A stretch of 64,000 bases of DNA from a virus (taxonomy: Duplodnaviria; Heunggongvirae; Uroviricota; Caudoviricetes): the IMG/VR virus record IMGVR_UViG_3300006217_000028; one strand, 5' to 3'. Positions within the stretch are counted from its first letter, which is position 1, and the number at the start of each line of letters is the position of its first letter. Below the pieces are notes generated by a model, which was given only the letters and a program-made list of their open reading frames with translations, had not been told where the DNA came from and searched no databases. Positions 23,208 through 59,902 of this stretch are shown piece by piece. A program made the translations under genes and the position numbers.

Positions 23208-23238
23208 CGCGAAATTCGCAAAGGCTATTGTGAAGGGA
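23208..23238 (+). promoter_or_regulatory. Conserved promoter-like motif, copy 1 (CGCGAAATTCGCAAAGGCTAT-TGTGAAGG)
   Basis: One of 10 copies sharing CGC, 18 nt, then T(A/G)TG(G/A)A, with exactly 21 nt from the C of CGC to the T. Confidence 0.5.
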
Positions 23239-23352
23239 GTGTCTTTTATTGGCGTTCTCTATTACTTTTTCACCGACTTCTTTTTTACTTTAGAATTATT
23301 CTAACCTAGAATAGAAATCGGAGGGAAACTTAAGCCGAAAGGAGCAAGTATT

Positions 23353-23775
23353 ATGAGTAAGAATTTGAGGCATCCGGAACTATCGGAGAAAAATCCATAC
23401 TGGATTGAGAGGCACCGTTACTACGAGCTTAAGCATTTCTGCTTGCAGTACCCTCTCTGGAAGAAAGCCTATGAGGCTATTGATGGAGCGCAAAAGCGTC
23501 ACGAAGATTTGGGTACAGTTATCCAAGTAAGCGGTCACAGAGACCCCACCGCAAAAGCGGCCGAGGCAATGATCTATTTTTCGACTAGGATGGACATGGT
23601 TAAGAAAGCCGCTGCTGATTCGGACGAACTACTCGCAAAGTATCTTGTCATAGGAATTACGGAGGGATGGTCCTACGATGCGCTGAAAGCTAGGTTAGAA
23701 ATTCCATGCGGTAAGGATACATATTATGACCGGTATAGGAAGTTCTTCTGGTTGCTGGACAAGATTAGAGGATAA
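23353..23775 (+). CDS. ArpU/RinA-family phage transcriptional regulator (sigma region-4-like)
   Basis: 140 aa. The C-terminal ...EIPCGKDTYYDRYRKFFWLLDKI resembles the conserved tail of RinA/ArpU activators. Size fits. Confidence 0.45.
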   Translation: MSKNLRHPELSEKNPYWIERHRYYELKHFCLQYPLWKKAYEAIDGAQKRHEDLGTVIQVSGHRDPTAKAAEAMIYFSTRMDMVKKAAADSDELLAKYLVIGITEGWSYDALKARLEIPCGKDTYYDRYRKFFWLLDKIRG

Positions 23776-23818
23776 GCGCAAAAATCGCAGTCCCTGTTAT
23801 GAAAGGAGGCGATATTTT

Positions 23819-24001
23819 ATGGCTGACAAAGGAACCGGAGTTCGTCAAGCAATGCGATCGTGTATTATCGACGAGGTTGCTAAACTGCGTAGGGAAGGTA
23901 AGTCTTACAAAGAAATCGCAGTGGACCTAGGGATACCGATAGGCTACGAAGTCCGCGAGCTGCTTTGTGATACCGCTGAAAAGAATCGCCAAAAGATGTG
24001 A
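23819..24001 (+). CDS. Small HTH DNA-binding protein (60 aa)
   Basis: KSYKEIAVDLGIPIGYEVRELL is a sigma-70 region 4 / LuxR-type HTH. RBS AAAGGAGG. Confidence 0.45.
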   Translation: MADKGTGVRQAMRSCIIDEVAKLRREGKSYKEIAVDLGIPIGYEVRELLCDTAEKNRQKM

Positions 24002-24130
24002 AGACGAAGGGGCTGTGGGGACACAGCCTTTTCTTCTTGATATTTTCCAGTACGCAAACGCCCGGGAAGCGTGCTATTTTAATATCGGAAAAATTCCCGG
24101 CTGGGAAATTTCGGAAAACATTTCAAACTC

Positions 24131-24160
24131 CGCGAGAATATCATCGCCTTTTATGGAACG
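24131..24160 (+). promoter_or_regulatory. Conserved promoter-like motif, copy 2 (CGCGAGAATATCATCGCCTTT-TATGGAACG)
   Basis: See the motif family. Upstream of 24189. Confidence 0.5.
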
Positions 24161-24188
24161 ATATTTTCATTGAAAGGGGCCCATAAAC

Positions 24189-24581
24189 ATGGACGAGAAA
24201 ATTAAAGAACTGTTGGACGAGGAGATACGGTCACAAATTATCGACCTTGCCTCATTCAAGAGCGGCAGTAAAGAAAAGGCGGATGCGATCGATGATCTGG
24301 CCACACTATACAAGCTGCGTATCGAGGAGGTTAAAGCCGAGATGGACCTGGACGATAAAGTCGACGCTCGCGACAGCGAAGACCGTTATCGTCAGGAACA
24401 GCTGAAGGAAAGGACCAAAGACCGGTACATCAACTTGGGCATAGCTGCGGCTGGTATTGTATTACCGCTGATATTTAACTGCGTCTGGATGAGCAAAGGG
24501 TTTGAGTTTGAGAAGACTGGAACATTTACCTCTACCACATTCCGAAATCTGTTCAGCCGTTTTAGGACGACCACGAAGTAA
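24189..24581 (+). CDS. Hypothetical protein with C-terminal membrane segment (130 aa)
   Basis: RBS AAAGGGG. Charged N-terminus and hydrophobic C-terminal third. Confidence 0.5.
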   Translation: MDEKIKELLDEEIRSQIIDLASFKSGSKEKADAIDDLATLYKLRIEEVKAEMDLDDKVDARDSEDRYRQEQLKERTKDRYINLGIAAAGIVLPLIFNCVWMSKGFEFEKTGTFTSTTFRNLFSRFRTTTK

Positions 24582-24630
24582 GTTCCAATCGGGGAGTGCG
24601 CGCAATACGCGTGTCCTCTTCGATTTTACT

Positions 24631-24661
24631 CGCTAAAAATACATATCCTTTTATGGAAAAG
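24631..24661 (+). promoter_or_regulatory. Conserved promoter-like motif, copy 3 (CGCTAAAAATACATATCCTTT-TATGGAAAAG)
   Basis: See the motif family. Upstream of 24752. Confidence 0.5.
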
Positions 24662-24751
24662 AGAACAAAGAGCTCTTTACTCTTGACTAATTCAAGGATG
24701 GACTGTACACTGATTACAGAACTTCCGAGTTAAACATAGGAGGAATATGTT

Positions 24752-24985
24752 ATGAATTTCTTTAATGAGGCAAAAATCAAGGCGTTCGAAACCGGACGAT
24801 ATATCTGCGAGAAATGCGGGTCCGTGATGAAATTCGAGAATGAATGGGAAGAAACCCTAATCTGCGAGAAATGTGGCCATGAGGTAGAGTTAGAGAAATA
24901 TGGCTTCACAGATGAAGAATATGAGGATCTGTATCCAACCTTAGAAGAAGTGTTGGAGCTGGAAGAAGGTTCGAACGACGATTAA
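24752..24985 (+). CDS. Zinc-ribbon small protein (77 aa)
   Basis: CEKCGSVMKF...CEKCGHEVE. RBS TAGGAGG. Confidence 0.5.
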   Translation: MNFFNEAKIKAFETGRYICEKCGSVMKFENEWEETLICEKCGHEVELEKYGFTDEEYEDLYPTLEEVLELEEGSNDD

Positions 24986-25007
24986 GAAACATAACAAAAA
25001 TTCACAG

Positions 25008-25043
25008 AGAGGAGAGTCCTGACGAGGGCTCTTTTCTTTTTTT
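25008..25043 (+). terminator. Rho-independent terminator
   Basis: GAGAGGAGAGTCCTGACGAGGGCTC followed by TTTTCTTTTTTT. Confidence 0.5.
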
Positions 25044-25044
25044 G

Positions 25045-25075
25045 CGCATTTTTTGCATTGTCTTTTATAGAAAAC
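25045..25075 (+). promoter_or_regulatory. Conserved promoter-like motif, copy 4 (CGCATTTTTTGCATTGTCTTT-TATAGAAAAC)
   Basis: See the motif family. Upstream of 25095. Confidence 0.5.
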
Positions 25076-25094
25076 TATAAATGGAGGTTGTCAT

Positions 25095-25310
25095 ATGGGA
25101 TACATAAAGCAAGGATTTCAATTGGTGATAGGGGTGTGTCTAGGAAAGGCGGTATATGACCTAATAAACAATGCCGGGGGTAGAGTAATTCAACACTTGG
25201 TGCCTGAAAAATATTGGAATATCCACCATCCTGATTATCCGCTTAGACCTAAGGTTGAAAAATCTGGGGAAATCCATAGTCAAAATCCGATAGGTTTCAA
25301 AGTAGATTGA
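25095..25310 (+). CDS. Hypothetical protein (71 aa)
   Basis: RBS ATGGAGG. Confidence 0.45.
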   Translation: MGYIKQGFQLVIGVCLGKAVYDLINNAGGRVIQHLVPEKYWNIHHPDYPLRPKVEKSGEIHSQNPIGFKVD

Positions 25311-25350
25311 GTCGCACAGGCTCTTTCTATTTTTTGTTGGGAGGACAACG

Positions 25351-25710: not shown

Positions 25711-25725
25711 TTTGTGGAGGACAGT

Positions 25726-25929: not shown

Positions 25930-25957
25930 CGCAATTTTTGCAATTCATATTATGAAA
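25930..25957 (+). promoter_or_regulatory. Conserved promoter-like motif, copy 5 (CGCAATTTTTGCAATTCATAT-TATGAAAG)
   Basis: See the motif family. Upstream of 25981. Confidence 0.5.
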
Positions 25958-25980
25958 GTAAATCTGAAAGGAGCATTCGT

Positions 25981-26175
25981 ATGAAAGAATTCAAAGAATG
26001 GAACACCTGGTCAATCGGAGTCAAGATTGTAATGCTAGTATGGGCCGTACTTACGATAATAAGCGCTATTTATAGCGCCGTAAGTACAGTCCTGCTGGTC
26101 GAGCCGAAATGGTTCCGGGACGCCAGAAAGTACATGAGTTATCAAGTGAGAAAACACCGAAAGCAGATTTATTGA
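25981..26175 (+). CDS. Small membrane protein (64 aa)
   Basis: Hydrophobic core VKIVMLVWAVLTIISAIYSAVSTVLLV. RBS AAAGGAG. Confidence 0.5.
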   Translation: MKEFKEWNTWSIGVKIVMLVWAVLTIISAIYSAVSTVLLVEPKWFRDARKYMSYQVRKHRKQIY

Positions 26176-26211: not shown

Positions 26212-26242
26212 CGCCAATTTTCCATGTTCCTTTATGAAAACC
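26212..26242 (+). promoter_or_regulatory. Conserved promoter-like motif, copy 6 (CGCCAATTTTCCATGTTCCTT-TATGAAAACC)
   Basis: See the motif family. Upstream of 26268. Confidence 0.5.
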
Positions 26243-26267: not shown

Positions 26268-26483
26268 ATGGACGAAATGAAAATTGTCTCTGGATTCACA
26301 ACTACACTGGTGTCGAAAGTGCTGAGGTTCGCTTTAAGGAAGAAGTTGGGTTATGATATTCATATCCAGCTTAACATCTTAGAAGCCACCATCAAAGACG
26401 GTAAGACGCATGTGCATATTGACGCGGATGCGGAGATGGATAAGGACGAGCTTGCAAAAGTTCTGAAGTCTGTTGGAATTTAA
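26268..26483 (+). CDS. Hypothetical protein (71 aa)
   Basis: RBS GAAAGGAGCAGAAGGAG. Confidence 0.5.
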   Translation: MDEMKIVSGFTTTLVSKVLRFALRKKLGYDIHIQLNILEATIKDGKTHVHIDADAEMDKDELAKVLKSVGI

Positions 26484-26558: not shown

Positions 26559-27407
26559 ATGAAATTGTTCAAGTCATTAAGCAGAGTCTGTTTCAAGGCG
26601 TGTATGAGCTTAAAACGAGGCTCACCTACTATTCTGACATGTGTTGGCGCTGTTGGATTTGTAGCAACTGTAGTGATGGCTGTGCGTGCTACGCCGAAAG
26701 CAGTTAAGTTGATAGAGAACGACAGCCTAAAACAACACGACGGCGACCCATATGCGTATACAAAGAAAGAGGCGGTTCGCTCTGCCTGGAAATGTTACCT
26801 TCCCTCCGCAGCCGTAGGCGCAGCGACTTTAGCCTGTATGTTTGGTGCAAACGCTTTGAACAAACGGCAGCAAGCGTCTATTGCTAGTTTATACGCCCTT
26901 GTGGACCGTTCTTATAAGGAGTATCGCAGTAAGGTCAAGGAACTTCTTGGGGAAGACGGAGACAAGCAGATCCGAGAAGAAATAGCCAAAGACAAGTGCG
27001 CCGAAACACGTCCGCCTGAAGAGGGTTACTTGCTATTCTGCGATGAGTATCGAGGGGAGTGTTTTGAGCGCACCATGACGCAGGTCATCCAGGCAGAGTA
27101 TCATTTTAACCGCAATTTTGTACTGCGGGGCGAGGCCAGCTTGAATGAGTTCTACAGTTTCTTGAACTTGGAGCCGATTGATGGCGGTGACGAAATCGGC
27201 TGGGACATTGGTTTTGGAGAGGAATTCGCAGGATATTCCTGGATAGATTTTGAGCACGAAACATTTACAATGGAAGACGGCATGGAATGCTGCTTGATAA
27301 ACTATCCATTTCCGCCAGTTCATCTGTTAGCTACTCTCGAAGACGTTGAGGAGTACAATAAAATGCTGGAGGCGTATTATCCGCAAAAATCGCAGGCTCT
27401 GTTATGA
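26559..27407 (+). CDS. Membrane-anchored protein, paralogue family member 1 (282 aa)
   Basis: N-terminal signal-anchor SPTILTCVGAVGFVATVVMAVRATPKAVKLI plus conserved segments shared with 27630-28397 and 29459-30400 (SAxxGAxxLAC...N..NKRQQA; GWDIGFG). Confidence 0.6.
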   Translation: MKLFKSLSRVCFKACMSLKRGSPTILTCVGAVGFVATVVMAVRATPKAVKLIENDSLKQHDGDPYAYTKKEAVRSAWKCYLPSAAVGAATLACMFGANALNKRQQASIASLYALVDRSYKEYRSKVKELLGEDGDKQIREEIAKDKCAETRPPEEGYLLFCDEYRGECFERTMTQVIQAEYHFNRNFVLRGEASLNEFYSFLNLEPIDGGDEIGWDIGFGEEFAGYSWIDFEHETFTMEDGMECCLINYPFPPVHLLATLEDVEEYNKMLEAYYPQKSQALL

Positions 27408-27422
27408 AAGGAGGCGTAGTGA

Positions 27423-27584
27423 ATGAACAAATCTAACCTTTTGAAAGGCTTGAGTATTCTTGCCGCAGGAGCCGGTTTAGTATTGAACATACTGAACAGT
27501 TTTATCGATGACAAGAAGATGGAGCAAAAGATTGAGGAAAAAGTGAATGAAGCGCTGTCCAAAAGAGAGCAGGAGTCCTGACAG
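27423..27584 (+). CDS. Small membrane protein (53 aa)
   Basis: MNKSNLLKGLSILAAGAGLVLNILNSF.... RBS AAAGGAGG. Its stop is embedded in a terminator hairpin. Confidence 0.35.
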
Positions 27585-27629: not shown

Positions 27630-28397
27630 ATGGCTAAGATCAATTTTTCAGCCATTGCCAAAACTTTTGGCCGAGGTTTGAAGGAACGAAGTCCTGAAAT
27701 CCTGGTTGGTATAGGTATCGTCGGAATGATAGGTGCAGCTATTATGGCGGTAAAGGCTACACCAAAAGCCTTGGAGCAGATTAAAGAAACTGAAAGGGAA
27801 ACGAAGGAGTCGCTCACTCCTAAAGATACTTTCAAGGTAACGTGGAGGAATTATGTTCCGTCCGTAGTAACGGGGACACTCTCGGCGGCCTGCATTATTG
27901 GCGCAAATTCTATACACCTGCGTAGGAAAGCAGCCTTGTCGGCGGCATGCGCTTTGTCAGAAACAGCATTGGCAAACTTCAAATCTCATGCCATCGAGCG
28001 TATCGGCGAAAAGAAAGTTAAGGAGATTGCGGACGATGTTGCAAAAGAGCAAATTGATAAGAACCCGGTTTCTGACAAAGAGATCATCTTCACGTCTAAG
28101 GGCAATACCCTTTGCTACGACCCATGGTGTGGCAGATATTTCAGAGGAGACATAGACTACATCCGGAAAGCAGAATATTATCTCAATCAAGAGATGCAGT
28201 CCATGGGTTATACATCGCTGAATAATTTCTACTATCTGATAGGCCTCGACGAAACCAGGGTTGGAGAAACGTTGGGGTGGAACATTGCAAATGGCCGGGT
28301 GGAACTCGACTTGAGTTCTCAGCTTGCAAAAAACGATGAGCCATGCGTTGTTTTGGGTTTTTATAAAGATCCCCATTACGATTTTGAGGGCCGGTAA
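27630..28397 (+). CDS. Membrane-anchored protein, paralogue family member 2 (255 aa)
   Basis: SPEILVGIGIVGMIGAAIMAVKATPKALEQI plus the conserved core shared with members 1 and 3. Confidence 0.6.
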   Translation: MAKINFSAIAKTFGRGLKERSPEILVGIGIVGMIGAAIMAVKATPKALEQIKETERETKESLTPKDTFKVTWRNYVPSVVTGTLSAACIIGANSIHLRRKAALSAACALSETALANFKSHAIERIGEKKVKEIADDVAKEQIDKNPVSDKEIIFTSKGNTLCYDPWCGRYFRGDIDYIRKAEYYLNQEMQSMGYTSLNNFYYLIGLDETRVGETLGWNIANGRVELDLSSQLAKNDEPCVVLGFYKDPHYDFEGR

Positions 28398-28399: not shown

Positions 28400-28428
28400 C
28401 GCGAAAAACACAACCTCTATTATGGAAC
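28400..28428 (+). promoter_or_regulatory. Conserved promoter-like motif, copy 7 (CGCGAAAAACACAACCTCTAT-TATGGAAC)
   Basis: See the motif family. Upstream of 28464. Confidence 0.5.
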
Positions 28429-28463: not shown

Positions 28464-28760
28464 ATGGAAAACGCAGAAGTTGTAACGAATGAGATTATCG
28501 ACATCGCTGATCATGTCATGGAGGCTGAACCGGCCCCGGTAACGGAGGTGATTGCCAAGCGCAATGGAGGCGCATTTATGACCGGAGCGATTGCGAGCAG
28601 TGTGGCCATTGCCGCGATCTATCTGGGCTACAAATATGTCGCCAGGCCGCTTTGGGCGAGACACAAGGCTAAGAGCCGGAAACCCGAAATGATCCATACG
28701 GACGGCAAAGAGGTCGAGACAGACAGCAGCAACGAAACGCCTGAGGAAGACGAGACCTGA
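28464..28760 (+). CDS. Small membrane protein (98 aa)
   Basis: Transmembrane helix GAFMTGAIASSVAIAAIYLGY. Acidic C-terminus. RBS AAAGGAG. Confidence 0.5.
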   Translation: MENAEVVTNEIIDIADHVMEAEPAPVTEVIAKRNGGAFMTGAIASSVAIAAIYLGYKYVARPLWARHKAKSRKPEMIHTDGKEVETDSSNETPEEDET

Positions 28761-28772: not shown

Positions 28773-28820
28773 GAGAGGAGAGGGCGCCTGTAACAGGGCG
28801 TCTTCTCTTTTATATTTTTT
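28773..28820 (+). terminator. Rho-independent terminator
   Basis: GAGAGGGCGCCTGTAACAGGGCGTCTTCTC followed by TTTTATATTTTTTT. Confidence 0.5.
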
Positions 28821-29458: not shown

Positions 29459-30400
29459 ATGAAAAACCTTGCTGTATCCGGCGCTTTGCAAAAGAAAATT
29501 AGCATGGCCGGACTGAAATTGAAAAAATACTCGCCAGAGATCCTGTTGATTGGTGGGGTTGTAGGGGTGGTGGCCACGATCGTGTTGGCCTGTCGTGCTA
29601 CTACGAAAGTTGGTGATGCCCTGTCAGAGGTTGCAGAGACCTCCGAAAAAATCAACGGCGCTCTTGCTGCTGGAGTAATTCGCCAGGCTTCTGACCCGGA
29701 AAAAGAAGAAAAGTATACGGAGGATGATGCCAAGCAAGACATGACTATTGCATATGTTCATACAGCGGTCAGGTTTGCGAAACTGTATGGTCCGGCGGCT
29801 CTTCTTGGCGCAGTGTCTATCTCCAGTATAGTCCTCTCCCACAATATCATGAATAAGCGCAATCAAGCTGTTTCTGCAACATTGGCAGCTGTTACAGCCA
29901 GCTACAGTGGTTATCGTAAGAGAGTAGCCGAGCGTTTCGGTGACGAGGTTGAGCGTGAACTCAAATATGGCATCAAAGCTCGGAAGTTTGAGGAAACGGT
30001 TACAGATGAGAAAGGCAAGGAAAAGAAAGTAAAAAGCACTGTTAATGTCGCCGACCCCAATGTAGAGGACCCCTACCTGCTCTGGTTTGATGATGTTACA
30101 AGACACTATGAGCCGAATCACGATTACAAGATGATGTTCCTGAAACAGGCCCAGAATCACGCGAACGACAAGCTCCGGGCGCAGGGATACTTGTTCCTCA
30201 GCGACGTGTATGACATGTTGGATATTGAGCGAACAAAAATGAGTCAGTGCGTAGGCTGGGTCTACCGGCCAGAGGATGACAGCCGGGACAACTATGTTGA
30301 CTTTGGTATCCAGGAGCTGAACAAGGTTTCCGGAGACACATACGAGCCCTCTATTTCGTTGTGCTTCAACGTGGATGGCAATATTCTCGATATGATTTGA
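29459..30400 (+). CDS. Membrane-anchored protein, paralogue family member 3 (313 aa)
   Basis: SPEILLIGGVVGVVATIVLACRATTKVGDAL plus the conserved core (NKRNQAVSATLAAV; GWVYRPEDD). Confidence 0.6.
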   Translation: MKNLAVSGALQKKISMAGLKLKKYSPEILLIGGVVGVVATIVLACRATTKVGDALSEVAETSEKINGALAAGVIRQASDPEKEEKYTEDDAKQDMTIAYVHTAVRFAKLYGPAALLGAVSISSIVLSHNIMNKRNQAVSATLAAVTASYSGYRKRVAERFGDEVERELKYGIKARKFEETVTDEKGKEKKVKSTVNVADPNVEDPYLLWFDDVTRHYEPNHDYKMMFLKQAQNHANDKLRAQGYLFLSDVYDMLDIERTKMSQCVGWVYRPEDDSRDNYVDFGIQELNKVSGDTYEPSISLCFNVDGNILDMI

Positions 30401-34800: not shown

Positions 34801-35876
34801 AACTGTTTGGAGAAGAGTACACGCAGCGATTCAAAGATATTTTGGACGCTCGTATCGCCATTAAGCACAAGGACTTTGATAAAGCCCGGAAGATGCTGAA
34901 TGGCGCTTTGGCGAAATATCTGAACGACGAAAATGCTGCTGCCGACTTGGCTCAGGCTTTGAAAATAGCCATTAACTCGGTGTATGGCCTGACTGCCGCA
35001 AACTTTGAGAACGCATTCCGCGATGCTCGGAACAAGGACAATATAGTTGCCAAGAGAGGCGCACTGTTCATGATCAACCTCAAGCATGAAGTACAGAAAC
35101 GCGGCTTCACCGTTGCTCATATCAAAACAGATTCCATCAAGATTCCGGACGCAACTCCCGAAATCATTCAGTTTGTTATGGATTACGGTCAGCAGTACGG
35201 CTACAACTTTGAGCATGAGGCTACTTATGACCGTATGTGCCTGGTAAACGACGCCGTGTATATTGCTAAATACGCAACGGTTGAGCGGTGTGTTGATTTG
35301 TACGGGCAAGACTATGTACTCAACGCCAAGGATACAGTGAAAGACTGTAAGAAACATCCTGGCGAATGGACTGCTACCGGAACCCAGTTCCAAGTTCCCT
35401 ACGTGTTCAAGAAACTTTTCAGCAGGGAAGACATCAAGTTCGAGGATATGTGCGAGACGAAATCGGTCAGCACCGCCATCTATATCGACCGTGATCCCGA
35501 GGAAGCCTTACGCTACATCAATAATCCAAACATGACTGTCGATACCGAGAGTGATATTTGGCTGGACAACAAGCATTTGCTGCACTTTGTCGGTAAAGTA
35601 GGCTTATTTACACCGGTAAAGCCTGGAGCAGGAGGCGGTACTTTGGTTCGTAAAAGCAAGGCGAAAGACGGTACAGATAAGTACGATGCCGTTACCGGGA
35701 CGAAGGGGCATAACTGGATGGAATCCGAGATGGTGCGTATCTTGAACAAAGAAGACTATATTGACCGCTCTTACTATGATAATTTGGTTACTGAAGCGGC
35801 CGAGTCCATCTCAAAGCACGGTGATTTCGAGTGGTTCACATCGGACGATGTTTTGGAGGCTGCCAAGACCGCGTAA
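31824..35876 (+). CDS. Multidomain replicase: SF3 (D5/P4-type) helicase + primase-like domain + family B DNA polymerase with 3-prime to 5-prime exonuclease
   Basis: 1350 aa. Walker A VFYGAAGTGKST. The P4/D5 helicase C-terminal signature ...SHEVMTVNEKFQKTYTNSFQCFLFLATNEP. Primase-like DxD (IVADFDMVDENG) and sGxGxH (SGAGIHLHYMY). PolB Exo I YDVEV and Exo II (delta-type) YCDNDVLAT. Motif A LLDIASMHPSSI (DxxSLYPS), motif B KIAINSVYG (KxxxNSxYG), motif C HIKTDSI (YGDTDS-like). Confidence 0.8.
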   Translation: MFDFLMISTRSTKRGVIEIYPKFIIKNSSDLMIRGGDFYAVWLEDRGLWSTDEQDVVRYIDRELDIYAKENSQRFDSNIQVLHMWDNESGMIDSWHKYCQKQMWDNYHMLDGKLVFTNSPTDKKDYSSKRLTYPLEPCETPAYDRLTSVLYTDEERHKFEWAIGAIVTGASKKLQKFMVFYGAAGTGKSTIVNIIDQLFEGYSVAFSAKELGSASSAFAMEQFRANPLVAIDNDAKLSRIDDNTRINKLVSHEVMTVNEKFQKTYTNSFQCFLFLATNEPVKITDAKSGLIRRLIDVVPTGDKIPVKEYNSLVEQVKFELGGIACHCRDVYLADPHRYDDYIPTRMLGATNDFYNFVLDSYPIFKQDDGVSASAAWAMYKTYCEEARVLNPLSSRPFKEELKNYFREFKDRPTLSDGTRPRQYYSGFRFEKFMYDQNQESANSETGPAWLNLAEQPSIFDTVCADCPAQYASSKDTPTRKWDNVVTKLSDLDTSKVHYAKVQEAHIVADFDMVDENGNKSLELNMKEAVKWPPTYAELSKSGAGIHLHYMYTGDVSKLSRVYDDHIEIKVFTGKSSLRRKLTKCNNLSISEISSGLPLKEDSKIVNFESIKNEKGLRTLIKRNLAKEIHPGTKPSVDFIYKILEDAYNDGLNYDVTNMRGSVLAFAAGSTHQADYCIKLVNKMKFKSDEPSEPIANTLEEKPLVFYDVEVFPNLFLVNWKVQGEGKPVARMINPKPKELEELLSFRLVGFNCRRYDNHILYARYIGYDNEQLYKLSQKIISGNSNCFFGEAYNLSYTDVYDFSSKKQSLKKFEIELGIHHQELGLPWDQPVPEELWIKVAEYCDNDVLATEAVFNARKADFTARQILADVAGMTVNDTTNSLTTRIIFGKNKKPQNVFNYRNMGVIPTDEAVCTHTITPDGVFFTNFGDEDYTVFDECGCPIFPGYKYENGKSTYRGEEVGEGGYVYSEPGMYSNIALLDIASMHPSSIVAEKLFGEEYTQRFKDILDARIAIKHKDFDKARKMLNGALAKYLNDENAAADLAQALKIAINSVYGLTAANFENAFRDARNKDNIVAKRGALFMINLKHEVQKRGFTVAHIKTDSIKIPDATPEIIQFVMDYGQQYGYNFEHEATYDRMCLVNDAVYIAKYATVERCVDLYGQDYVLNAKDTVKDCKKHPGEWTATGTQFQVPYVFKKLFSREDIKFEDMCETKSVSTAIYIDRDPEEALRYINNPNMTVDTESDIWLDNKHLLHFVGKVGLFTPVKPGAGGGTLVRKSKAKDGTDKYDAVTGTKGHNWMESEMVRILNKEDYIDRSYYDNLVTEAAESISKHGDFEWFTSDDVLEAAKTA

Positions 35877-35894
35877 AACGCACGTTATATAACG

Positions 35895-35937
35895 AAAGGG
35901 AGAGGACCTTAGAGGTTCTTTCCCTTTATTTTTTTCA
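35895..35937 (+). terminator. Rho-independent terminator
   Basis: AAAGGGAGAGGACCTTAGAGGTTCTTTCCCTTT followed by ATTTTTTT. Confidence 0.5.
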
Positions 35938-35951
35938 AGGGAGGCCAGATT

Positions 35952-40988: not shown

Positions 40989-41019
40989 CGCGCAAAATAC
41001 AGTTTCTATTATGGAAGGA
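40989..41019 (+). promoter_or_regulatory. Conserved promoter-like motif, copy 8 (CGCGCAAAATACAGTTTCTAT-TATGGAAGGA)
   Basis: See the motif family. Upstream of 41033. Confidence 0.5.
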
Positions 41020-41032: not shown

Positions 41033-41233
41033 ATGGCTGAACGCGACAATTCTTACCTTCTGGATGGAGGTGATTCTGTGGGCATGACGAACGAACAGTA
41101 CAAGGGAATGCTGCTGGATGAGTTGGAAGATTGGCAGGAAGTCCTTGAGATGGCCGTTGCGTCCGAGAACGCCGAGATTCAGAAGAAGGCTGAGAAACAA
41201 ATCGCAAAGATCAATCAAAAGCTGAAGTTCTAA
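41033..41233 (+). CDS. Hypothetical protein (66 aa)
   Basis: RBS AAGGAGGT. Confidence 0.5.
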   Translation: MAERDNSYLLDGGDSVGMTNEQYKGMLLDELEDWQEVLEMAVASENAEIQKKAEKQIAKINQKLKF

Positions 41234-47896: not shown

Positions 47897-48068
47897 CTAT
47901 CCGACTGATATTTTGGTAGTTGATGGTATGGGAGTATCAGTTGAAGAGACTATGGAAATTATTAAGGCACATAAGGAGGGTTATGGGCCTAATTCTTTCC
48001 ATGACGTCCCTTTTGACATATACATCATTAAAAAATTGGAGGTACCTATCTATGAAATTCTTTGTTGA
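47883..48068 (+). CDS. Hypothetical protein (61 aa)
   Basis: Internal ATG of track ORF 47841-48068. Confidence 0.3.
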   Translation: MSEVNYPTDILVVDGMGVSVEETMEIIKAHKEGYGPNSFHDVPFDIYIIKKLEVPIYEILC

Positions 48069-49218: not shown

Positions 49219-49249
49219 CGTGAAAATTACAGACGCTATTGTGAAAGAG
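49219..49249 (+). promoter_or_regulatory. Conserved promoter-like motif, copy 10 (CGTGAAAATTACAGACGCTAT-TGTGAAAGAG)
   Basis: See the motif family. Followed by hairpin AGAGCTGAGAGAAATCTTGGCTCTTT. Upstream of 49303. Confidence 0.45.
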
Positions 49250-49302
49250 CTGAGAGAAATCTTGGCTCTTTTATATTTTTATTAGGAAGGGGCAAGGTTA
49301 GT

Positions 49303-49551
49303 ATGAACGAAACTGGCAAAGAAATCTTGTGTACCGGGTGCGCCCACAGAGAAGTATGCGAGCGAAAAAACGAATACCAGCACGCCGCGGTACTTGCAAA
49401 CGACATCATCGAAGAATTGATGGATAGAGTACGTTTACAGTTGCGCACTATTCCTTGGGTTCATGTACGGTCACCTGAAGTAAATTGCGATTATTTCATG
49501 AGGCGGCGCAAAATGGCGACGGTATGGGACAACGGAGGTACCAATGAGTAA
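49303..49551 (+). CDS. Hypothetical protein (82 aa)
   Basis: RBS AGGAAGGGG. Confidence 0.45.
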   Translation: MNETGKEILCTGCAHREVCERKNEYQHAAVLANDIIEELMDRVRLQLRTIPWVHVRSPEVNCDYFMRRRKMATVWDNGGTNE

Positions 49552-50506
49552 AGAATACGATGAATACCTACAAGAGCATCGATCAAACCTCTGCTTTGGT
49601 CTGGAATGGCTTAAGCAGAATCTTCCTGAGGTGCTTGAAGGAGCGTACAATATTGACTGGCTCGTTCAGAACGCCCATGACCATTCTAAGTACGGGTCGG
49701 AAGAATACAACGCCTACGATACATATTTCTACACAAACATCAAATCGTATCGCGTCCAGCAGGATTTTCAGCTAGCCTGGCTCCATCACATCCATCATAA
49801 CCCTCACCATTGGCAGCACTGGGTGCTTATCAACGACGATCCAGCAGAAGGAACTGTCTGCCTTGAGATGCCGCGATGCTATATCATTGAAATGATTTGC
49901 GACTGGTGGTCTTTCAGTTGGGCTAAGAATGATTTGACGGAGATATTTCGTTGGTATGACGAGCATCGGGAACACATACTGCTGCATAAGAACACTCGAG
50001 AGATGGTCGAGGATATTCTTGGCAAAATGGCGGAAAAACTTGACTATACGGGCGAGTTGTGTCATCATGGTGTAAAAGGGCAGAAGTGGGGTGTACGCAA
50101 TGGGCCGCCGTATCCTTTAGGCGAAGGTGATAAGTCGGCGGAGGAGAGAAAAGCTGATGGTAATAGAACTAACATCGTCAAACAGGCGATTCAGTCGGGA
50201 AAAGTTTCGACTAAAATTAACCGTGAAAAGCAAAAAAGACATACACAAGATGACCACACGCCAGGAAAAAGCTATATTCATGGAGATTTAATAGAGGCGC
50301 AACACCTTGTGGATACACTCAGTGGTACAGGGAAAGCACTTGAAGGGCGAGACGGAGCTTGGAACCATCGCGAAAGAGTTTCACATAGCGACATAATCGG
50401 TACGCATGTAGACGAAAAGGGTGTCGAAACTCCATCTAAAAATGCGATAATCGTTTATTCCAAGACTGGAAGTCACATTTATCCAGCAAAGAAGAAAGGA
50501 GACTAA
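49544..50506 (+). CDS. Hypothetical protein (320 aa) with His-rich segment HHIHHNPHHWQHW
   Basis: RBS GGAGGT. The C-terminal 20 aa recur in degenerate form at 50841-50900. Confidence 0.5.
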   Translation: MSKEYDEYLQEHRSNLCFGLEWLKQNLPEVLEGAYNIDWLVQNAHDHSKYGSEEYNAYDTYFYTNIKSYRVQQDFQLAWLHHIHHNPHHWQHWVLINDDPAEGTVCLEMPRCYIIEMICDWWSFSWAKNDLTEIFRWYDEHREHILLHKNTREMVEDILGKMAEKLDYTGELCHHGVKGQKWGVRNGPPYPLGEGDKSAEERKADGNRTNIVKQAIQSGKVSTKINREKQKRHTQDDHTPGKSYIHGDLIEAQHLVDTLSGTGKALEGRDGAWNHRERVSHSDIIGTHVDEKGVETPSKNAIIVYSKTGSHIYPAKKKGD

Positions 50507-51163: not shown

Positions 51164-51181
51164 CAGGTGACGAAGGAAAAA

Positions 51182-51218
51182 GAGCTTAGAGAAATCTAGG
51201 CTCTTTCTTCATTTTTTA
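51182..51218 (+). terminator. Rho-independent terminator
   Basis: AGAGCTTAGAGAAATCTAGGCTCT followed by TTCTTCATTTTTT. Confidence 0.45.
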
Positions 51219-51747: not shown

Positions 51748-52080
51748 ATGAAGGTTAACGTTTTAGGAACTGATTACACGATTGTTTTGGTTAGCGACGC
51801 CGAAGACAAACGGCTATCCAACATTGATGGGTTTTGTGACGAGTCCACGAGCGAAATTCGTGTAGATAATTACGAATCTCATCGGGGCGACCCGCACAAC
51901 AAAGCAAACTTGGATAAGCAAATCAAAAAGAACATCCGGCATGAATTGATTCACGCGTTTCTGTTTGAGAGCGGTCTTGCCGAGAACAGCCCCTGGGCAC
52001 AAAACGAAGAATTGGTCGACTGGATTGCGATACAGGGGCCAAAGCTGTGGAAAGCATGGCAGGAGGCGGATGCTGTATGA
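51748..52080 (+). CDS. HExxH zinc-metallopeptidase-like protein (110 aa)
   Basis: RHELIHAFL motif. RBS GAGGTGATATAAGG. Confidence 0.4.
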   Translation: MKVNVLGTDYTIVLVSDAEDKRLSNIDGFCDESTSEIRVDNYESHRGDPHNKANLDKQIKKNIRHELIHAFLFESGLAENSPWAQNEELVDWIAIQGPKLWKAWQEADAV

Positions 52081-52601
52081 TTATGTCCGGTCTAGAAATT
52101 CACCAACACATCGGCAAAGAGATTGTTATCAATCCATTCGATGAATCCAGGCTCAATCCGAACAGCTACAACCTACGGTTGGCTGACGAGCTGCTGGTAT
52201 ACAACAATAAAGTCCTGTTTATGGATGAGGATAACCCCGTAACACACATTGCGATTCCTAGAACCGGCTTACTTCTGGAGCCGGGAAAACTATATCTTGG
52301 GCGGACCTTGGAGTACACAAAAACCGAAGGGTTTGTACCAATGCTTGAGGGACGCTCTTCTGTTGGTAGACTCGGGTTGTTCATCCATGTGACAGCAGGT
52401 TTCGGGGATGTCGGTTTTGCTGGCTACTGGACGCTGGAAATGCACTGTGTTCAGCCAGTGATGGTATTTCCGGGGGTGGAAATATGCCAGATTTACTACC
52501 ATACACTGCAAGGAGATTATAAGCCTTATCAGTCCGGCAAATATCAAAACAATAATGGTGTGCAGCCAAGTATGCTATGGAAAGACTTTCTTGCTAAATA
52601 A
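52077..52601 (+). CDS. dcd: dCTP deaminase
   Basis: 174 aa. GRSSVGRLGLFIHVTAGFGDVGFAGYWTLEMHC aligns with E. coli Dcd [33 protein letters not shown]. Start overlaps the upstream stop (ATGA). Confidence 0.7.
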   Translation: MIMSGLEIHQHIGKEIVINPFDESRLNPNSYNLRLADELLVYNNKVLFMDEDNPVTHIAIPRTGLLLEPGKLYLGRTLEYTKTEGFVPMLEGRSSVGRLGLFIHVTAGFGDVGFAGYWTLEMHCVQPVMVFPGVEICQIYYHTLQGDYKPYQSGKYQNNNGVQPSMLWKDFLAK

Positions 52602-55026: not shown

Positions 55027-55334
55027 AAGCAGCATATCGACCCCGGTTAAGTGCCGGAGAACGTAAAGCTATGGATATGGAAATCAAGCGCCAGTGTGCC
55101 GAGTACGATAAGAGGAATGCTGCTGAGATTGATGCTATGGTGCTGTGGATACTCCATCAGGAGTTTGGCTTTGGACCAGAAAGACTGCGTAGATTCCACG
55201 AGCGTTTCTTTGCTGGCATGGATGCTTTGGTAAAGAGGTACGAGATGGAGGACGAGGCTTGGATCTGCACGCAGAAGCTTAGAGAGTATGGGGTGGATGT
55301 GGAGAGTTGGGCGGATAATATGAACCACTCATAA
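55023..55334 (+). CDS. Hypothetical protein (103 aa)
   Basis: RBS AGGAGCGAACTGG. Overlaps the upstream stop. Confidence 0.5.
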   Translation: MKAAYRPRLSAGERKAMDMEIKRQCAEYDKRNAAEIDAMVLWILHQEFGFGPERLRRFHERFFAGMDALVKRYEMEDEAWICTQKLREYGVDVESWADNMNHS

Positions 55335-56081
55335 CTCTGGCTCGATAAAAGTATAATCAGGCAAGGTTTTATCGCTTTCAAACTCAACACCGTAGTATTT
55401 ATAGGCAACCCGGGATACAGGCGAGTTTGAAAAAACATCCACATATGCGCCACTGTATACATATGCTGAGTTGCCTTCCCAAAACGTGGGACCTTTATAT
55501 GTTGTAACCGACTTGTAGTGCGTATTCCTCCTCTTAGTATACCAATTCTCCTTTAGGTACTCCTGCCTCTCGTTACTGTCAAGATTTGGAAAATCCTCAT
55601 CCTCCCCCTTCACCAACACTACCACCCGGTTCATCTTTGCCTCGTCAAGGCCCAGCTGTTCCGCTAGGCAGAACAGACGGTAGGCCTTTTCAAAGTGGAG
55701 CTCATCCTTATCGCTCAGACCATATCCGTTGGCGTATATTACCCCCAGATTGTTACAGGCCTGAGCCTGATAGTCGCTCTCGATTACGCTGGCAATCTTG
55801 TACCAGTATATAGCATCGGTATATTCTCCGGTCTCATAATAGTGCTGGGCGAGAAACATCTGAGACTTAACGTCACCAGCGTTTGCCTTAACCACATAGT
55901 CGGTGTTCCATGGAAAAAATTGGGGGTACACATCAGACACAAAGGCCAGCATTCCCACAAAAATGCTGAGAGAGCTGACAATCCCTGCAACCAAATTCAC
56001 CCTCTCAAGCCACGGTTTCTTCGTCTTCTGTACAGATCCCCCACACTTTATGTATAAAATTGGCCGAATTCTCCTCTTCAT
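55329..56081 (-). CDS. Sel1/TPR-like repeat membrane protein (250 aa), minus-strand moron
   Basis: Transmembrane helix VAGIVSSLSIFVGMLAFV. Repeats ...AQHYYETGEYTDAIYWYKIAS... / ...AQACNNLGVIYANGYG... typical of Sel1 repeats. AT-rich region 55330-56300. Opposite strand to the neighbouring genes. Confidence 0.55.
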   Translation of the reverse strand: MKRRIRPILYIKCGGSVQKTKKPWLERVNLVAGIVSSLSIFVGMLAFVSDVYPQFFPWNTDYVVKANAGDVKSQMFLAQHYYETGEYTDAIYWYKIASVIESDYQAQACNNLGVIYANGYGLSDKDELHFEKAYRLFCLAEQLGLDEAKMNRVVVLVKGEDEDFPNLDSNERQEYLKENWYTKRRNTHYKSVTTYKGPTFWEGNSAYVYSGAYVDVFSNSPVSRVAYKYYGVEFESDKTLPDYTFIEPEL

Positions 56082-57237: not shown

Positions 57238-57244
57238 TAAATAT

Positions 57245-57472: not shown

Positions 57473-57489
57473 TAAAAAGGAGGATGAAG

Positions 57490-57876: not shown

Positions 57877-57899
57877 AAGTATTATGGAGGGCAAAAATC

Positions 57900-58320
57900 G
57901 CTTGCCCTCTTCCGTCTTCAGAAAAAAATTCGGCTATTCTAGGTTAAAAACCCGGTGGATTTGGTTCTATTTTAGAATTAAATAATTGTACCACTAGGTA
58001 GTGAAAAACTGGCCAAAACCTGTCCAGAGGCCCAATTTTCTGTCCAAATACTTGAAATTCCAAAGTGGTGTAAAGGTGTTTGCTTTACAAAAACTGCTGA
58101 TTTTGGCCCAATTTTTGGACAGATGTACCACCTTTGTACCACTTTTTTTAACAAACTGGTACAACAAAAACCCAGTAATAATGCGGCTTTGCGGGCTCTT
58201 TGTACCAGTTTCCCACTTTTTTCTCTTAATTTAATGCGAAGAAAAAATTAATAATTATAAGTAAATATGGTCAAAAAAACTGGCCAACTGGCCAAAGGGC
58301 CATTAAGGAGGTGATTTTGC
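57900..58320. repeat. Repeat-dense non-coding region (candidate operator / iteron / origin): TGTACCAC-type and TGGCCAA / GGCCCAATTTT-type repeats
   Basis: TTGTACCACTAGG (57986). ATGTACCACCTTTGTACCAC (58124-58145). CTGGTACAAC (58158, inverted). TTTGTACCAG (58198). ACTGGCCAAAACCTGTCCAGAGGCCCAATTTTCTGTCCAAA (58007-58047) vs TTTTGGCCCAATTTTTGGACAGATG (58094-58118). AACTGGCCAACTGGCCAAAGGGCCA (58276-58300). A related CTAGTACCACCTAGTACC lies in the attP region at 22425. Confidence 0.5.
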
Positions 58321-58321
58321 A

Positions 58322-58496
58322 GTGAAAACCACGTGGCAAGATATTTTCAACGCGTTCAAACAAAAATACCCACGATTATCTTTGACAGCCGTTTCGTATC
58401 GCCCCTGTGATTTCATGACAATCGAGGTATTTTTAAGTGATGGTCAGCGTGTTCTCTATAGCGGATTTGGAGGGCAGGCAAAAGTGATATCGTGAA
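58322..58496 (+). CDS. Small protein (57 aa), GTG start
   Basis: RBS AAGGAGGTGA 7 nt before GTG. Confidence 0.3.
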
Positions 58497-58514
58497 AGTG
58501 TATTTAGGTATTCC

Positions 58515-58660
58515 ATTTTGTGAAAGGATGTGGTATACTGTACGTGCGAGACAATTCAATAAATCTTCTAGGCTTTATGGGACTAATACTCTGGCAAAGA
58601 GTGTTTTTCCTCTTATCTCGTATACCCTAAAGCCTAGGGAATGGGAATTGTCTCGCAAAC
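58515..58660 (+). promoter_or_regulatory. Promoter (TTGTGA, 17 nt, TGgTATACT) followed by a long imperfect inverted repeat forming a structured 5-prime leader for gene 58740
   Basis: Arms GCGAGACAATTCAATAAATCTTCTAGGCTTTATGGG (58546-58581) and CCCTAAAGCCTAGGGAATGGGAATTGTCTCGC (58625-58656) share a perfect 12-bp outer stem GCGAGACAATTC/GAATTGTCTCGC and a 10-bp inner stem CTAGGCTTTA/TAAAGCCTAG around a loop of about 43 nt. Confidence 0.5.
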
Positions 58661-58739
58661 AATGAGGGATACACGTTTGCGGGTGCGTCTCTTCATCGGG
58701 GCGCACTTTTATATTCTCGCTCAAATCGGAGGAATACTC

Positions 58740-59804
58740 ATGCCAGAGCAATACGAGTTTTCAGAGATGATAAACACGAATAATTTCTCAATAATGGAAT
58801 ACGAGGCGCCAATTGACCTTGCGACAAACTCCCAATTTAATAAACTGGCACTTAATCCACAGCAGAAAATTCAAGTTGGCGCTTTACTTCAACATACTCC
58901 TGCTGTAGCTGCCGCTAAAGCTATGAGTGACGTATACGTCCTTACCGTTCCGAAGGGACTGCCATATACCTTAATGGAACTTAAGCGTGGCGGTTATGCG
59001 GGAATATTTGTTGGCCAGGATAGTAAGATTGTTGGAATACCCGCTCTCCAAAAAATGACAGCTCCTGTTGCGGCTGTCGGCGCTTTTACCGCTATGGCGG
59101 CTGTGTCGGGGCAATATTTCCTATCGCAAATCAATGACGAGATGAAAATGATGCGTCAGAGCGTTGATGAAATTCTGAACTTTTTGAATGACGATAAACA
59201 ATCCGAGCTGTTGGCAGAGGTGAGTTTTGTTAAATATGCATTCCAAAACTACAGCTCAATTATGCAGTGTGACACGCAGCGGATTGCCACTATTATAGGG
59301 CTACAAGCTGCAAAAAAAGTCGCCACAAAAAATGTCGAATTCTATACAAGAGGGCTTGATAGTGCTCTGTCTAATAAGACAGATGTATTCGAATCCATTG
59401 ATGCTGCCGAAAAGGCTAAAGATAGTCTTGATCTATCTATCCAGCTATCCACTATGAGTTCTTTGCTCGAAGTATACTATTCACAGAATTTTGACCCTAC
59501 CTATTTGAAATGGGTCGAGTCTTCAGAAATAAAGTATATAACCGACCACTCCAAAAAAGTCAATGATATTTTTAACCGGCTGACTGGTAGGCTTGATGGT
59601 GTGGGAAAGGGAATCTTTTCCAAAGCGGTTAAAGATGACCGAAGGTCTGCTTATCAGGAAAAGCTCTCAGCATTGTTCGAGTCTCTTAGCGCGGATGATG
59701 AGCCGCAACTTTGTAAATCTTTAAGATCGGCACTAGGGGTTATTACCTCTGAAACAAAGCTTTACCTGACCAAAAACGGGGATGCGTACTTAAAAGCTAT
59801 ATAG
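58740..59804 (+). CDS. Hypothetical protein (354 aa)
   Basis: RBS GGAGGAATACTC. The track ORF starts at 58641 inside the inverted repeat. Confidence 0.55.
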   Translation: MPEQYEFSEMINTNNFSIMEYEAPIDLATNSQFNKLALNPQQKIQVGALLQHTPAVAAAKAMSDVYVLTVPKGLPYTLMELKRGGYAGIFVGQDSKIVGIPALQKMTAPVAAVGAFTAMAAVSGQYFLSQINDEMKMMRQSVDEILNFLNDDKQSELLAEVSFVKYAFQNYSSIMQCDTQRIATIIGLQAAKKVATKNVEFYTRGLDSALSNKTDVFESIDAAEKAKDSLDLSIQLSTMSSLLEVYYSQNFDPTYLKWVESSEIKYITDHSKKVNDIFNRLTGRLDGVGKGIFSKAVKDDRRSAYQEKLSALFESLSADDEPQLCKSLRSALGVITSETKLYLTKNGDAYLKAI

Positions 59805-59814
59805 AGTCTATGAC

Positions 59815-59862
59815 AAGATGAAGCAGGGATGTTTTACAGCACCCCTGCTTTTCTTTTTGCTC
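59815..59862 (+). terminator. Rho-independent terminator
   Basis: AGCAGGGATGTTTTACAGCACCCCTGCT followed by TTTCTTTTTGCTCTTTTTT. Confidence 0.5.
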
Positions 59863-59873
59863 TTTTTTAGCTA

Positions 59874-59902
59874 CGCGAAAAACGCACACCCTTTTATGAA
59901 GA
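59874..59902 (+). promoter_or_regulatory. Conserved promoter-like motif, copy 9 (CGCGAAAAACGCACACCCTTT-TATGAAGAG)
   Basis: See the motif family. Followed by hairpin AGAGAGAAGAAAATAAGGCCCGAAATACCTTTTGGGCTTTCTCT. Upstream of 59975. Confidence 0.5.

Follow-up and report, generated by a model that had tools for sequence, protein, structure and literature searches.

The 64,000-nt stretch of the viral record IMGVR_UViG_3300006217_000028 (Caudoviricetes), referred to here as the window and used for all coordinates without a contig name, carries a 29-nt repeat ahead of many of its small genes, which raises the question of what this repeat does and which enzyme reads it. The first-pass annotation had described it as a phage-specific element outside the sigma-70 scheme, a promoter or activator site ahead of short early cassettes, and a promoter-like element of this kind is supported by the present analysis. 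Its copy number, single strand, placement ahead of genes, conservation, co-occurrence with a polymerase-like gene and misfit to sigma-70 promoters are demonstrated properties. The element is very probably a promoter of some kind, and on balance the candidate favored as its reader is a polymerase-like protein of 939 aa that the phage itself encodes (60799-63618, + strand). Motif positions are counted from the C of the leading CGC, which is position 1.

All ten copies listed in the first-pass annotation were found on the + strand, and the distance from C1 to T22 is 21 nt in each of them. A position matrix made from these ten copies detected five further + strand copies: those at 20287, 22919, 23777 and 27382 score 22-31 bits, and that at 35870 is degenerate and reaches 18 bits. 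The ten copies are thus real, and the total was understated. The aligned 15 copies share a conserved block of exactly 29 bp, CGC-r-AAAwt-n-r-CA, N4, C-T-n-TTATG-r-AA-r, and no conservation was seen in its upstream or downstream flanks. The gap of eight nucleotides first assigned to the motif has to be corrected: its boxes comprise 13 and 10 nt, and the gap is 5 nt (13 + 5 + 10 + 1 = 29). The single orientation holds for 15 of 15 copies, the matrix scan of the minus strand of the window giving zero matches above 10 bits. With the loose pattern CGC-N8-CA-N7-TTATG and at most one mismatch, 18 matches were counted versus 4.06 ± 2.19 in shuffled sequences. A matrix derived from Faecalibacterium phage FP_oengus only, and thus independent of the window, detected 12 window copies on the + strand and 0 on the minus strand, compared to 0.54 in random sequence. 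The start codon of a + strand open reading frame (ORF) lies at most 145 nt downstream of every one of the 15 copies, and 4 of the 15 adjoin or extend into the 3′ end of the ORF before them. A terminator hairpin in front of each copy, as first proposed, was found for only about five of the ten listed copies (23208, 24631, 25045, 26212 and 59874; −18 to −24 kcal/mol, followed by a T-run).

Judged by its sequence, the window phage is an Oengus-like gut phage, and its kin are the actinophage clusters DJ, AU and BI together with the Lactococcus Nevevirus. No DNA similarity of this region to known phages was found. Proteins homologous to the 939-aa protein are present in 250 phage records with 38-54% identity, among them FP_oengus, a human-gut contig, Gordonia cluster DJ (Deejayvirinae), Arthrobacter cluster AU and Streptomyces cluster BI, as well as Rhodococcus, Microbacterium, Curtobacterium and Lactococcus (Nevevirus) phages. 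Synteny across these kin includes DUF6353 proteins, a primase-polymerase, a single-stranded DNA-binding protein, a helicase, a VRR-Nuc-like protein, a Cas4-like exonuclease, the polymerase-like protein and an 87-aa ORF (63615-63878, + strand, PHROG 4303). The latter is located immediately 3′ of the polymerase-like gene in every lineage examined, and its product could be a partner of the polymerase. A shared ancestry of these phages of Actinobacteria and Firmicutes has already been argued in a preprint (bioRxiv 10.1101/842583).

Three additional contigs were used for comparison, namely L093, which is the continuation of the window phage, L094, which is a near-identical variant, and L084, which is FP_oengus. 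After the 87-aa ORF, a cos-like sequence (GGAGGGGGTCTCTCAAAACACACCCCCTCCCTGCATCGCGCC, around 63975-64000) was recognized, which runs on in L093 (13190-13240) and resembles the cos ends of Gordonia and Streptomyces phages. This would place the polymerase-like gene at the right end of the virion DNA, and among the isolate genomes listed the gene is likewise located at the right genome end. The window phage is temperate, as it carries a tyrosine integrase gene (21031-22218). An SPbeta-like phage, first suggested by the gene layout, was rejected, the SPbeta element SPBRE being unrelated and similarity to YopR or YonO being absent. MT835495 was excluded as an informative relative as well: the contig begins just before the polymerase operon and runs into apparently non-phage, probably host DNA, and it is therefore silent on early promoters.

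The distribution of the element among relatives follows the same rules. In 80 related IMG/VR loci (1.14 Mb), which were gathered via a neighboring 140-aa protein and scanned with the window matrix, 599 matches were obtained on the + strand and 0 on the minus strand. FP_oengus has at least 15 copies, all of which fall in the interval from the integrase gene to the polymerase-like gene, and zero copies in its 27-kb late region. Zero copies were likewise found in the late region of L093 from cos to the capsid genes. A homologous element with the core ACA-N4-CTnT(T/A)ATG-R-R-A is common to all lineages and located in the same genome arm, and box order and spacing are preserved in Gordonia phage Secretariat (CGCAnnnATTACAyGCCCTATAATGAGAC), Arthrobacter phage Arcadia (CGCGTAAATTACAnGGGCTATAATGAGAA), Lactococcus phage P092 (TTTAAGTTTTACATACCCTATAATGAAAG) and Streptomyces phage Scap1 (CGCAAGTTTTACAGCCTCTATAGTGAGAC).

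The 46-nt Secretariat version matched 130 of 50,697 phage records in 840 places, on the + strand in all records listed. Sorted by genus, motif holders comprise Gordonia (55), Streptomyces (53), Rhodococcus (4) and Siphovirus (11), and holders of the polymerase gene comprise Gordonia (55), Streptomyces (54), Rhodococcus (4) and Siphovirus (12). A single Microbacterium match (phage Count), a possible outsider, has the polymerase module too. Motif and polymerase gene are both present in six of the six lineages examined in detail, in a co-occurrence comparison that covers polymerase-gene-bearing relatives only.

Two repeats described earlier are to be considered in this context. A 50-bp motif of the Gordonia DJ phage Vardy has been reported as one 'with a sigma-70 -10' (PMC9671010), and for cluster AU a 32-bp 'boundary sequence' has been reported, which was taken as a recombination joint (bioRxiv 10.1101/2020.01.10.891226). 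Both are like the window motif in box order, spacing, genome arm and the presence of a polymerase-like gene, and they appear to belong to the same element family; this comparison was made via the cluster relatives Secretariat and Arcadia and not with the repeats as printed. Unlike the present reading, these reports deal with single clusters, interpret the element as a sigma-70 −10 box or a recombination joint, and draw no link to the polymerase-like protein, a start site or Firmicutes phages.

The position of the transcription start was derived from the features that follow the element. In FP_oengus, a transfer RNA (tRNA)-like gene (Rfam, 47.9 bits; L084 2936-3005) has its 5′ end at motif position 27. 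Across the 80 gut relatives, 56 tRNA genes, which represent 28 unique contexts, have their 5′ ends at positions 27-30, which is 2-5 nt past G25 and 3-6 nt past the hexamer that would have to serve as −10 element (positions 19-24), whereas sigma-70 promoters start about 6-8 nt past this element. Most of these tRNA contexts have a T-rich stretch resembling a terminator tail just 5′ of the motif. Of 312 unique sites, 24% have a Shine-Dalgarno sequence whose first base lies at positions 27-29, and in none does it lie before position 25. Purines prevail over positions 25-31 of 144 unique sites and fill positions 26-30 almost throughout. Since a functional tRNA needs its 5′ end, a promoter in the motif has to initiate no later than position 27. 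The most likely start is the invariant G25, corresponding for example to 23232, 24155 and 59898 in the window. A start at G25 combined with a −10 element at positions 19-24 would be impossible in a sigma-70 layout. Of the two functions first offered for the motif, the promoter is supported and a pure activator site is unlikely, because the conserved block extends right up to the presumed start site.

The tRNA genes that follow motif copies in gut relatives (e.g., L009 12929-13004, L007 9358-9433, L026 3815-3892) include 17 cases of TTA ochre suppressors, 2 cases with a TCA anticodon and some odd anticodon loops. The suppressor tRNAs hint at stop-codon suppression or recoding in the clade. In the window itself, no tRNA genes were found.

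The missing −35 consensus, one of the points on which a sigma-70 promoter had been doubted, was confirmed by the absence of information content 5′ of CGC in the 15 window copies. In the 144 unique sites of the relatives, T-richness at positions −1 and 0 is all that was detected upstream of CGC. If CGC(A) is taken as a −35 element, the spacer amounts to 14 nt instead of 16-18. At position 20, which would correspond to the A at −11, the 144 unique gut-clade sites divide into 66 with T, 65 with A, 7 with C and 6 with G, and in FP_oengus the would-be −10 hexamer reads CTTTAT. No other reading register has both A at −11 and T at −7 across all lineages, T at −7 being the base that is missing, and these two bases are found together solely in the actinophage and Lactococcus lineages. 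The invariant bases of the 144 unique sites are G2, C12, A13 and G25, and T21 and T24 are nearly invariant. A sigma-A reading in any register was rejected because of the variable position 20, the CTTTAT of FP_oengus and the proximity of tRNA genes and Shine-Dalgarno sequences. That the motif is not read through sigma-70-type recognition is considered probable.

The window also contains a perfect sigma-70-type promoter, TTGACA-16-TGnTATAAT (56149-56122, minus strand, 12 of 12 matches), which is wholly unlike the motif. It precedes ORF 55329-56081 (250 aa, weak TPR match), one of the very few leftward genes of the window. This gene is probably read by the host polymerase, as a lysogeny or moron gene. 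FP_oengus likewise has a canonical-looking promoter, in this case ahead of an unannotated ORF.

Among the proteins conserved in all motif lineages, the 939-aa protein is the only one with a transcription or DNA-binding signature, and it is the only protein with a DxDGD motif in the window. It contains an invariant SGADFDGD (residues 523-530), which matches the metal-binding loop of RNA polymerases, helix-turn-helix (HTH)-like segments near residues 60-145 (lambda cI/Xre-like) and a C-terminal HTH at approximately residues 897-938 (sigma region 4/resolvase-like). A double-psi beta-barrel core with a DxDGD loop, as expected of phage-encoded two-barrel polymerases of the P23-45, AR9, crAss and YonO kind, is probably present. 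A preprint on this 'HTH protein' gives an HHpred match to Pfam RdRP (P = 95.7%), the DxDGD loop and an HTH at both ends, and is silent on promoters (bioRxiv 10.1101/842583). The family has at least 8000 matching proteins in databases, some of them on hundreds of gut contigs, and a profile search for diversity returned the same gut sequences at 68-73% identity. The N-terminal HYGxxRxSGRYPWGSG (residues 12-29, window 60799-60900) is invariant across seven aligned lineages, and should the enzyme travel in the virion, this motif could possibly act as a signal for packaging or ejection. The protein had first been called a YonO-like RNA polymerase. It is the best candidate reader, but neither BLAST nor profile comparison revealed similarity to YonO, and it belongs to a different two-barrel family.

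The other readers first suggested fared less well. ORF 23353-23775 (PHROG 11237), proposed as an ArpU/RinA-like regulator, has no Pfam or NCBIfam match and is confined to the gut clade, and the motif reaches far beyond this clade. ArpU/RinA sites would be expected ahead of the packaging and late operon; the motif is found in the early arm and is absent before the terminase gene. For the 60-aa ORF 23819-24001, considered as a cognate HTH factor, a sub-threshold match to sigma-70 region 4 was obtained, and its conservation does not parallel the motif. Both were rejected as cognate factors for want of family support and of conservation outside the gut clade. A tape-measure-fused polymerase was also rejected, as the tape measure protein has neither a DxDxD loop nor polymerase-like similarity. 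No polymerase of the T7 family was seen among about 50 larger window ORFs compared to Pfam and in the pre-computed Pfam results of the late region, a screen that does not include every ORF. Covariation of the C-terminal HTH with the CGC box, which is CGC in most lineages and TTT in P092, was tried and gave no signal, since the HTH is kept in P092 too. Proteins without known function that are conserved across the clade include a 178-aa protein at 31253, a 207-aa protein at 28820, the 87-aa protein at 63615 and three DUF6353 paralogs.

Taken as a whole, the preferred account, which is held with slightly better than even confidence, is that of a clade promoter which spans −24 to +5, starts at G25 and is most likely read by the 939-aa polymerase-like protein. 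The motif would be the promoter class of a large siphovirus clade comprising the Oengus-like gut phages, clusters DJ, AU and BI with their relatives and the Lactococcus Nevevirus. It would serve rightward transcription of the non-structural arm with approximately one promoter per short gene cassette, many of which end in an intrinsic terminator. In the proposed layout, CGC would occupy −24 to −22, an A/T tract −20 to −15, (A)CA −14 to −12, C-T −7 and −6, TTAT −4 to −1 and the purine run GRAAR +1 to +5, resulting in a T7-type arrangement in which an AT-rich box abuts a +1 G. The two upstream boxes, CGC and ACA, are one helical turn apart and thus fit two HTH domains, so that those at the N- and C-terminus of the protein could bind there, and TTAT would melt. 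The copy at 59874 heads the VRR-Nuc/Cas4/polymerase operon beside cos, and the late genes beyond cos, which have no motif copy, may be reached by read-through after the genome ends have joined. We infer both the HTH contacts and this read-through. No distinct late promoter 3′ of the polymerase gene could be recognized in FP_oengus or in the continuation of the window phage.

A more far-reaching version of this account is advanced tentatively and falls short of an even chance. It holds that a sigma-free, single-chain two-barrel polymerase with terminal HTHs reads a 29-bp duplex promoter that has been kept across phages of Actinobacteria and Firmicutes. The enzyme would be virion-borne or part of a self-activating loop, and it would provide thousands of gut and soil phages with a host-independent system for their whole non-structural programme.

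Several points weigh against the preferred account. TATAAT is exact in the Gordonia, Arthrobacter and Lactococcus versions and is possibly a host −10 element. The start site and the reading enzyme were deduced from sequence, and the tRNAs could be processed from longer read-through transcripts. The co-occurrence of motif and polymerase gene could be mere shared ancestry of the whole clade. The AlphaFold model of the 939-aa protein has a mean predicted local distance difference test score (pLDDT) of 59, so the fold is not firm, and in PDB sequence searches the HTH regions were matched and nothing beyond them. The polymerase gene is itself located behind a motif copy and a leader hairpin with a U-run, which implies that the first molecules come from the virion, from an unfound host promoter or from leaky read-through. 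Intrinsic terminators at cassette boundaries are a usual mark of genes that the host polymerase transcribes. Finally, YonO of SPbeta reads late genes from a single start site and not early genes (PMC5467207).

Some of these points are shared by the strongest competing explanation, in which the host core RNA polymerase is redirected by a phage factor, either a divergent sigma factor or an appropriator of the MotA/AsiA type acting on CGC...ACA, and the 939-aa protein is used for late genes only, as YonO is. Here the start of the cycle would be simpler, because an enzyme already in the cell would transcribe a polymerase gene that lies behind the motif and a leader terminator. The intrinsic terminators ending the cassettes are obeyed by the host polymerase, the actinophage and Lactococcus versions have the exact TATAAT, and SPbeta offers a precedent, with early genes transcribed by the host polymerase and late genes by YonO. 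Possible factors would be found among the clade-conserved proteins without known function (31253, 28820, 63615 and the DUF6353 paralogs), yet no sigma or HTH signature was found in these proteins with Pfam, NCBIfam and PHROGs. A G25 start abutting the AT box clashes with −10 recognition by the sigma-70 family, the gut clade is without a conserved A at the would-be −11 position, and the separate motif that late promoters would require was not seen 3′ of the polymerase gene. Redirection of the host enzyme is regarded as unlikely.

An ordinary host sigma-A promoter of the '−10 only' type, in which TnTTAT/TATAAT acts as the −10 element and the boxes further upstream play no part or an UP-like one, has considerably less in its favor. 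The exact TATAAT of the Gordonia, Arthrobacter and Lactococcus phages would suit it, and the −35 element is often missing from actinobacterial promoters. The genome announcement of Vardy took the element in this sense (PMC9671010). Against this stand CTTTAT in FP_oengus, the near-equal T (66) and A (65) among 144 sites at position 20, the lack of a register that fits every lineage, and tRNA 5′ ends and Shine-Dalgarno sequences just 3-6 nt past the hexamer. In addition, CGC and ACA are invariant across hosts of two phyla, and the host-type promoter of the window is canonical and unlike the motif. This explanation is very improbable.

No more credit can be given to the idea that the motif is chiefly the operator of a master repressor, comparable to SPBRE and MrpR in SPbeta, which would silence the early promoters of the prophage. 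It draws on the temperate nature of the phage with its tyrosine integrase and on a copy number and early-gene placement that parallel SPBRE, including copies before the polymerase gene and after the DNA polymerase gene. But the motif has no sequence likeness to SPBRE, the window matrix gave no convincing site on SPbeta, and the window has no MrpR/YopR homolog (tblastn of YopR versus the window: nothing below E = 2), so that the motif was rejected as an SPBRE analog. Moreover, the full motif is kept in strictly lytic DJ and AU phages without integrase or repressor, the element is asymmetric, one-stranded and fixed relative to gene starts, and the location of the actual promoter would stay unexplained. 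The last explanation takes the repeats as 'boundary sequences' whose main role would be to favor recombination and the exchange of genes among phages. Such a role has been put forward for the 32-bp repeat of cluster AU (bioRxiv 10.1101/2020.01.10.891226) and is in keeping with the extra small-gene cassettes of L094. The explanation is regarded as extremely improbable, since recombination joints would require neither a fixed strand nor a set distance to tRNA 5′ ends or Shine-Dalgarno sequences nor invariant single bases, and persistence across phyla would not be expected. The mosaicism is more readily accounted for as a side effect of portable promoter-gene-terminator cassettes.

The L094 cassettes form a series of additional small genes ahead of the terminase gene (L094 14793-18300, compared to L093), several with a motif copy at their 5′ side, and promoter-gene cassettes seem to move as units. 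In the window, the first copy (CGCGAATTATGCAAGCCCTTTTATGACCG, 20287..20315, + strand, as are all copies; 24.7 bits, also detected by the FP_oengus matrix) is followed by a 56-aa ORF (20331-20501) and a terminator. Behind these lies a lysogeny and counter-defence block (20585-22218), which consists of a Tad8-like Thoeris inhibitor gene (20585-20794, Pfam E = 6e-14), an HTH_17 excisionase-like ORF (20800-20991) and the integrase gene. The second copy (22919..22947; 22.0 bits, an exact pattern match) overlaps the end of a DUF6431 ORF and has ORF 22967-23176 downstream. At the copy 23208..23236, a leader hairpin with T-run (23234-23260) comes before ORF 23353-23775. The copy 23777..23805 (31.3 bits) begins 2 nt past the stop codon of this ORF, and its 3′ end GAAAG merges into the Shine-Dalgarno sequence GGAGG of ORF 23819-24001. 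The four strong copies unlisted by the first-pass annotation are these two at 22919 and 23777, the first at 20287, and 27382..27410 (30.0 bits), which is located within the last codons of the DUF6353 ORF 26559-27407 and precedes ORF 27423-27581.

The copies in between each precede a small ORF: 24131..24159, also detected by the FP_oengus matrix, precedes ORF 24189-24581, 24631..24659 a zinc-ribbon ORF (24752-24985), 25045..25073 ORF 25095-25310, 25930..25958 ORF 25981-26175 and 26212..26240 ORF 26268-26483. Further downstream, the copy 28400..28428 precedes ORF 28464-28760. The degenerate copy 35870..35898 (18.4 bits), in which TATATAACG replaces CTnTTATG, is located at the end of the DNA polymerase gene and has a strong hairpin with T-run directly 3′ (35895-35938, −30.7 kcal/mol); its function is doubtful. 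The Shine-Dalgarno sequence of ORF 41033-41233 begins within the 3′ end of the copy 40989..41017. The copy 49219..49247 is followed from position 25 by a hairpin with T-run (49243-49285) and then by ORFs 49303-49551 and 49544-50506, the second of which encodes DUF5662 and an Ntox50 toxin domain (Pfam E = 9e-17). The hairpin at 49243 recurs in near-identical form at 51179 (51179-51206).

The last copy, 59874..59902, is followed by a leader hairpin with T-run (59899-59946) and by the operon for VRR-Nuc-like protein, Cas4-like exonuclease and polymerase-like protein. This arrangement of motif, hairpin with U-run and polymerase operon recurs in FP_oengus, MT835495 and Secretariat. In total, hairpins start at motif positions 25-27 in four window copies (23208, 35870, 49219 and 59874), and such hairpins may serve as attenuators, as 5′ stabilizers or as a filter by which different polymerases are told apart. 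The leader hairpins of the window and of Secretariat look alike by sequence, a resemblance that could be due to chance. Intergenic regions that are AT-rich, about 200-300 bp long and contain short repeats were observed a few genes before the polymerase operon (L084 26890-27100, L088 32901-33208, L091 23062-23365). The repeats include TGGCCAAAAA in FP_oengus and TTGACA/TTGTCAAA in actinophages, and the regions could be a replication origin or host-type promoters for the first polymerase molecules.

Three paralogous DUF6353 (PHROG 2152) genes are located at 26559-27407, 27630-28397 and 29459-30400, and at least one homolog was observed in each of five annotated phages compared. Further accessory genes of the early arm encode an N6 DNA methylase (36551-37429), an SPFH/Band 7 protein (47920-48984) and a dCTP-deaminase-like protein (52047-52601, from pre-computed Pfam results on L093).

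Promoters of phage polymerases are a known kind of element, and none has been defined so far for this abundant single-chain two-barrel family, whose members are mostly labeled 'HTH DNA-binding protein' in databases. The candidate promoter and its predicted start base are present in culturable Gordonia, Arthrobacter and Streptomyces isolates of SEA-PHAGES and in Lactococcus phage P092 and can thus be tested. If the assignment is true, repeats once called sigma-70 boxes or recombination joints would be re-interpreted, a simple sequence marker for the early genes of the clade in metagenomes would be available, and a small orthogonal expression system for Gram-positive hosts would be possible.

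Among the known systems, SPBRE is similar in being a short element present in about ten copies in early-gene promoter regions, one of them ahead of the polymerase gene (PMC10516654). In contrast to the window motif, its sequence is approximately CAAATACAAAWAATATGTATA, it lies within the spacer of canonical sigma-A promoters, and it is bound by the recombinase-like repressor MrpR (PMC10516654), which is absent from the window; the window motif is also present in lytic phages. YonO is likewise a single-polypeptide polymerase distantly related to multisubunit RNA polymerases, and its gene is likewise located at the early/late junction with a long late operon downstream (PMC5467207). It differs in its single late start site, whereas the window motif is multi-copy in the early arm, and even for this best-studied enzyme of its type the promoter sequence and mode of recognition are still open (PMC5467207).

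The nearest precedent that has been worked out is the Thermus phage P23-45, which has two-barrel polymerases that transcribe pre-early and early genes from repeated motifs, and these motifs co-vary with the presence of the polymerases among relatives (PMC10770324). P23-45 is likewise a siphovirus, its virion RNA polymerase gp96 and non-virion RNA polymerase gp64 are single-chain two-barrel enzymes with a DxDxD loop, and its motifs, with approximately 14 and 7 copies upstream of pre-early and early genes, are unlike host promoters. No sequence relation of polymerases or motifs is detectable, however. P23-45 uses two enzymes, one of them fused to the tape measure protein, whereas the window encodes one DxDGD protein, which carries HTH domains at both ends, unlike the P23-45 enzymes. 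The assignment in P23-45 was made by chromatin immunoprecipitation sequencing (ChIP-seq) and mapped transcription start sites, whereas that in the window is inferred.

In its layout, the window motif is similar to the promoters of T7, T3 and SP6, which are likewise contiguous blocks of approximately 23-29 bp with an AT-rich box abutting a +1 G and a purine-rich initially transcribed sequence, and which are likewise present in many copies on one strand. The Streptomyces and Gordonia versions (CTATAGTGAGACC and CTATAATGAGACC) resemble CTATAGGGAGACC of T7. The candidate enzyme differs from the T7 type in belonging to the unrelated double-psi beta-barrel fold class, and the resemblance to T7 is one of layout, not of ancestry.

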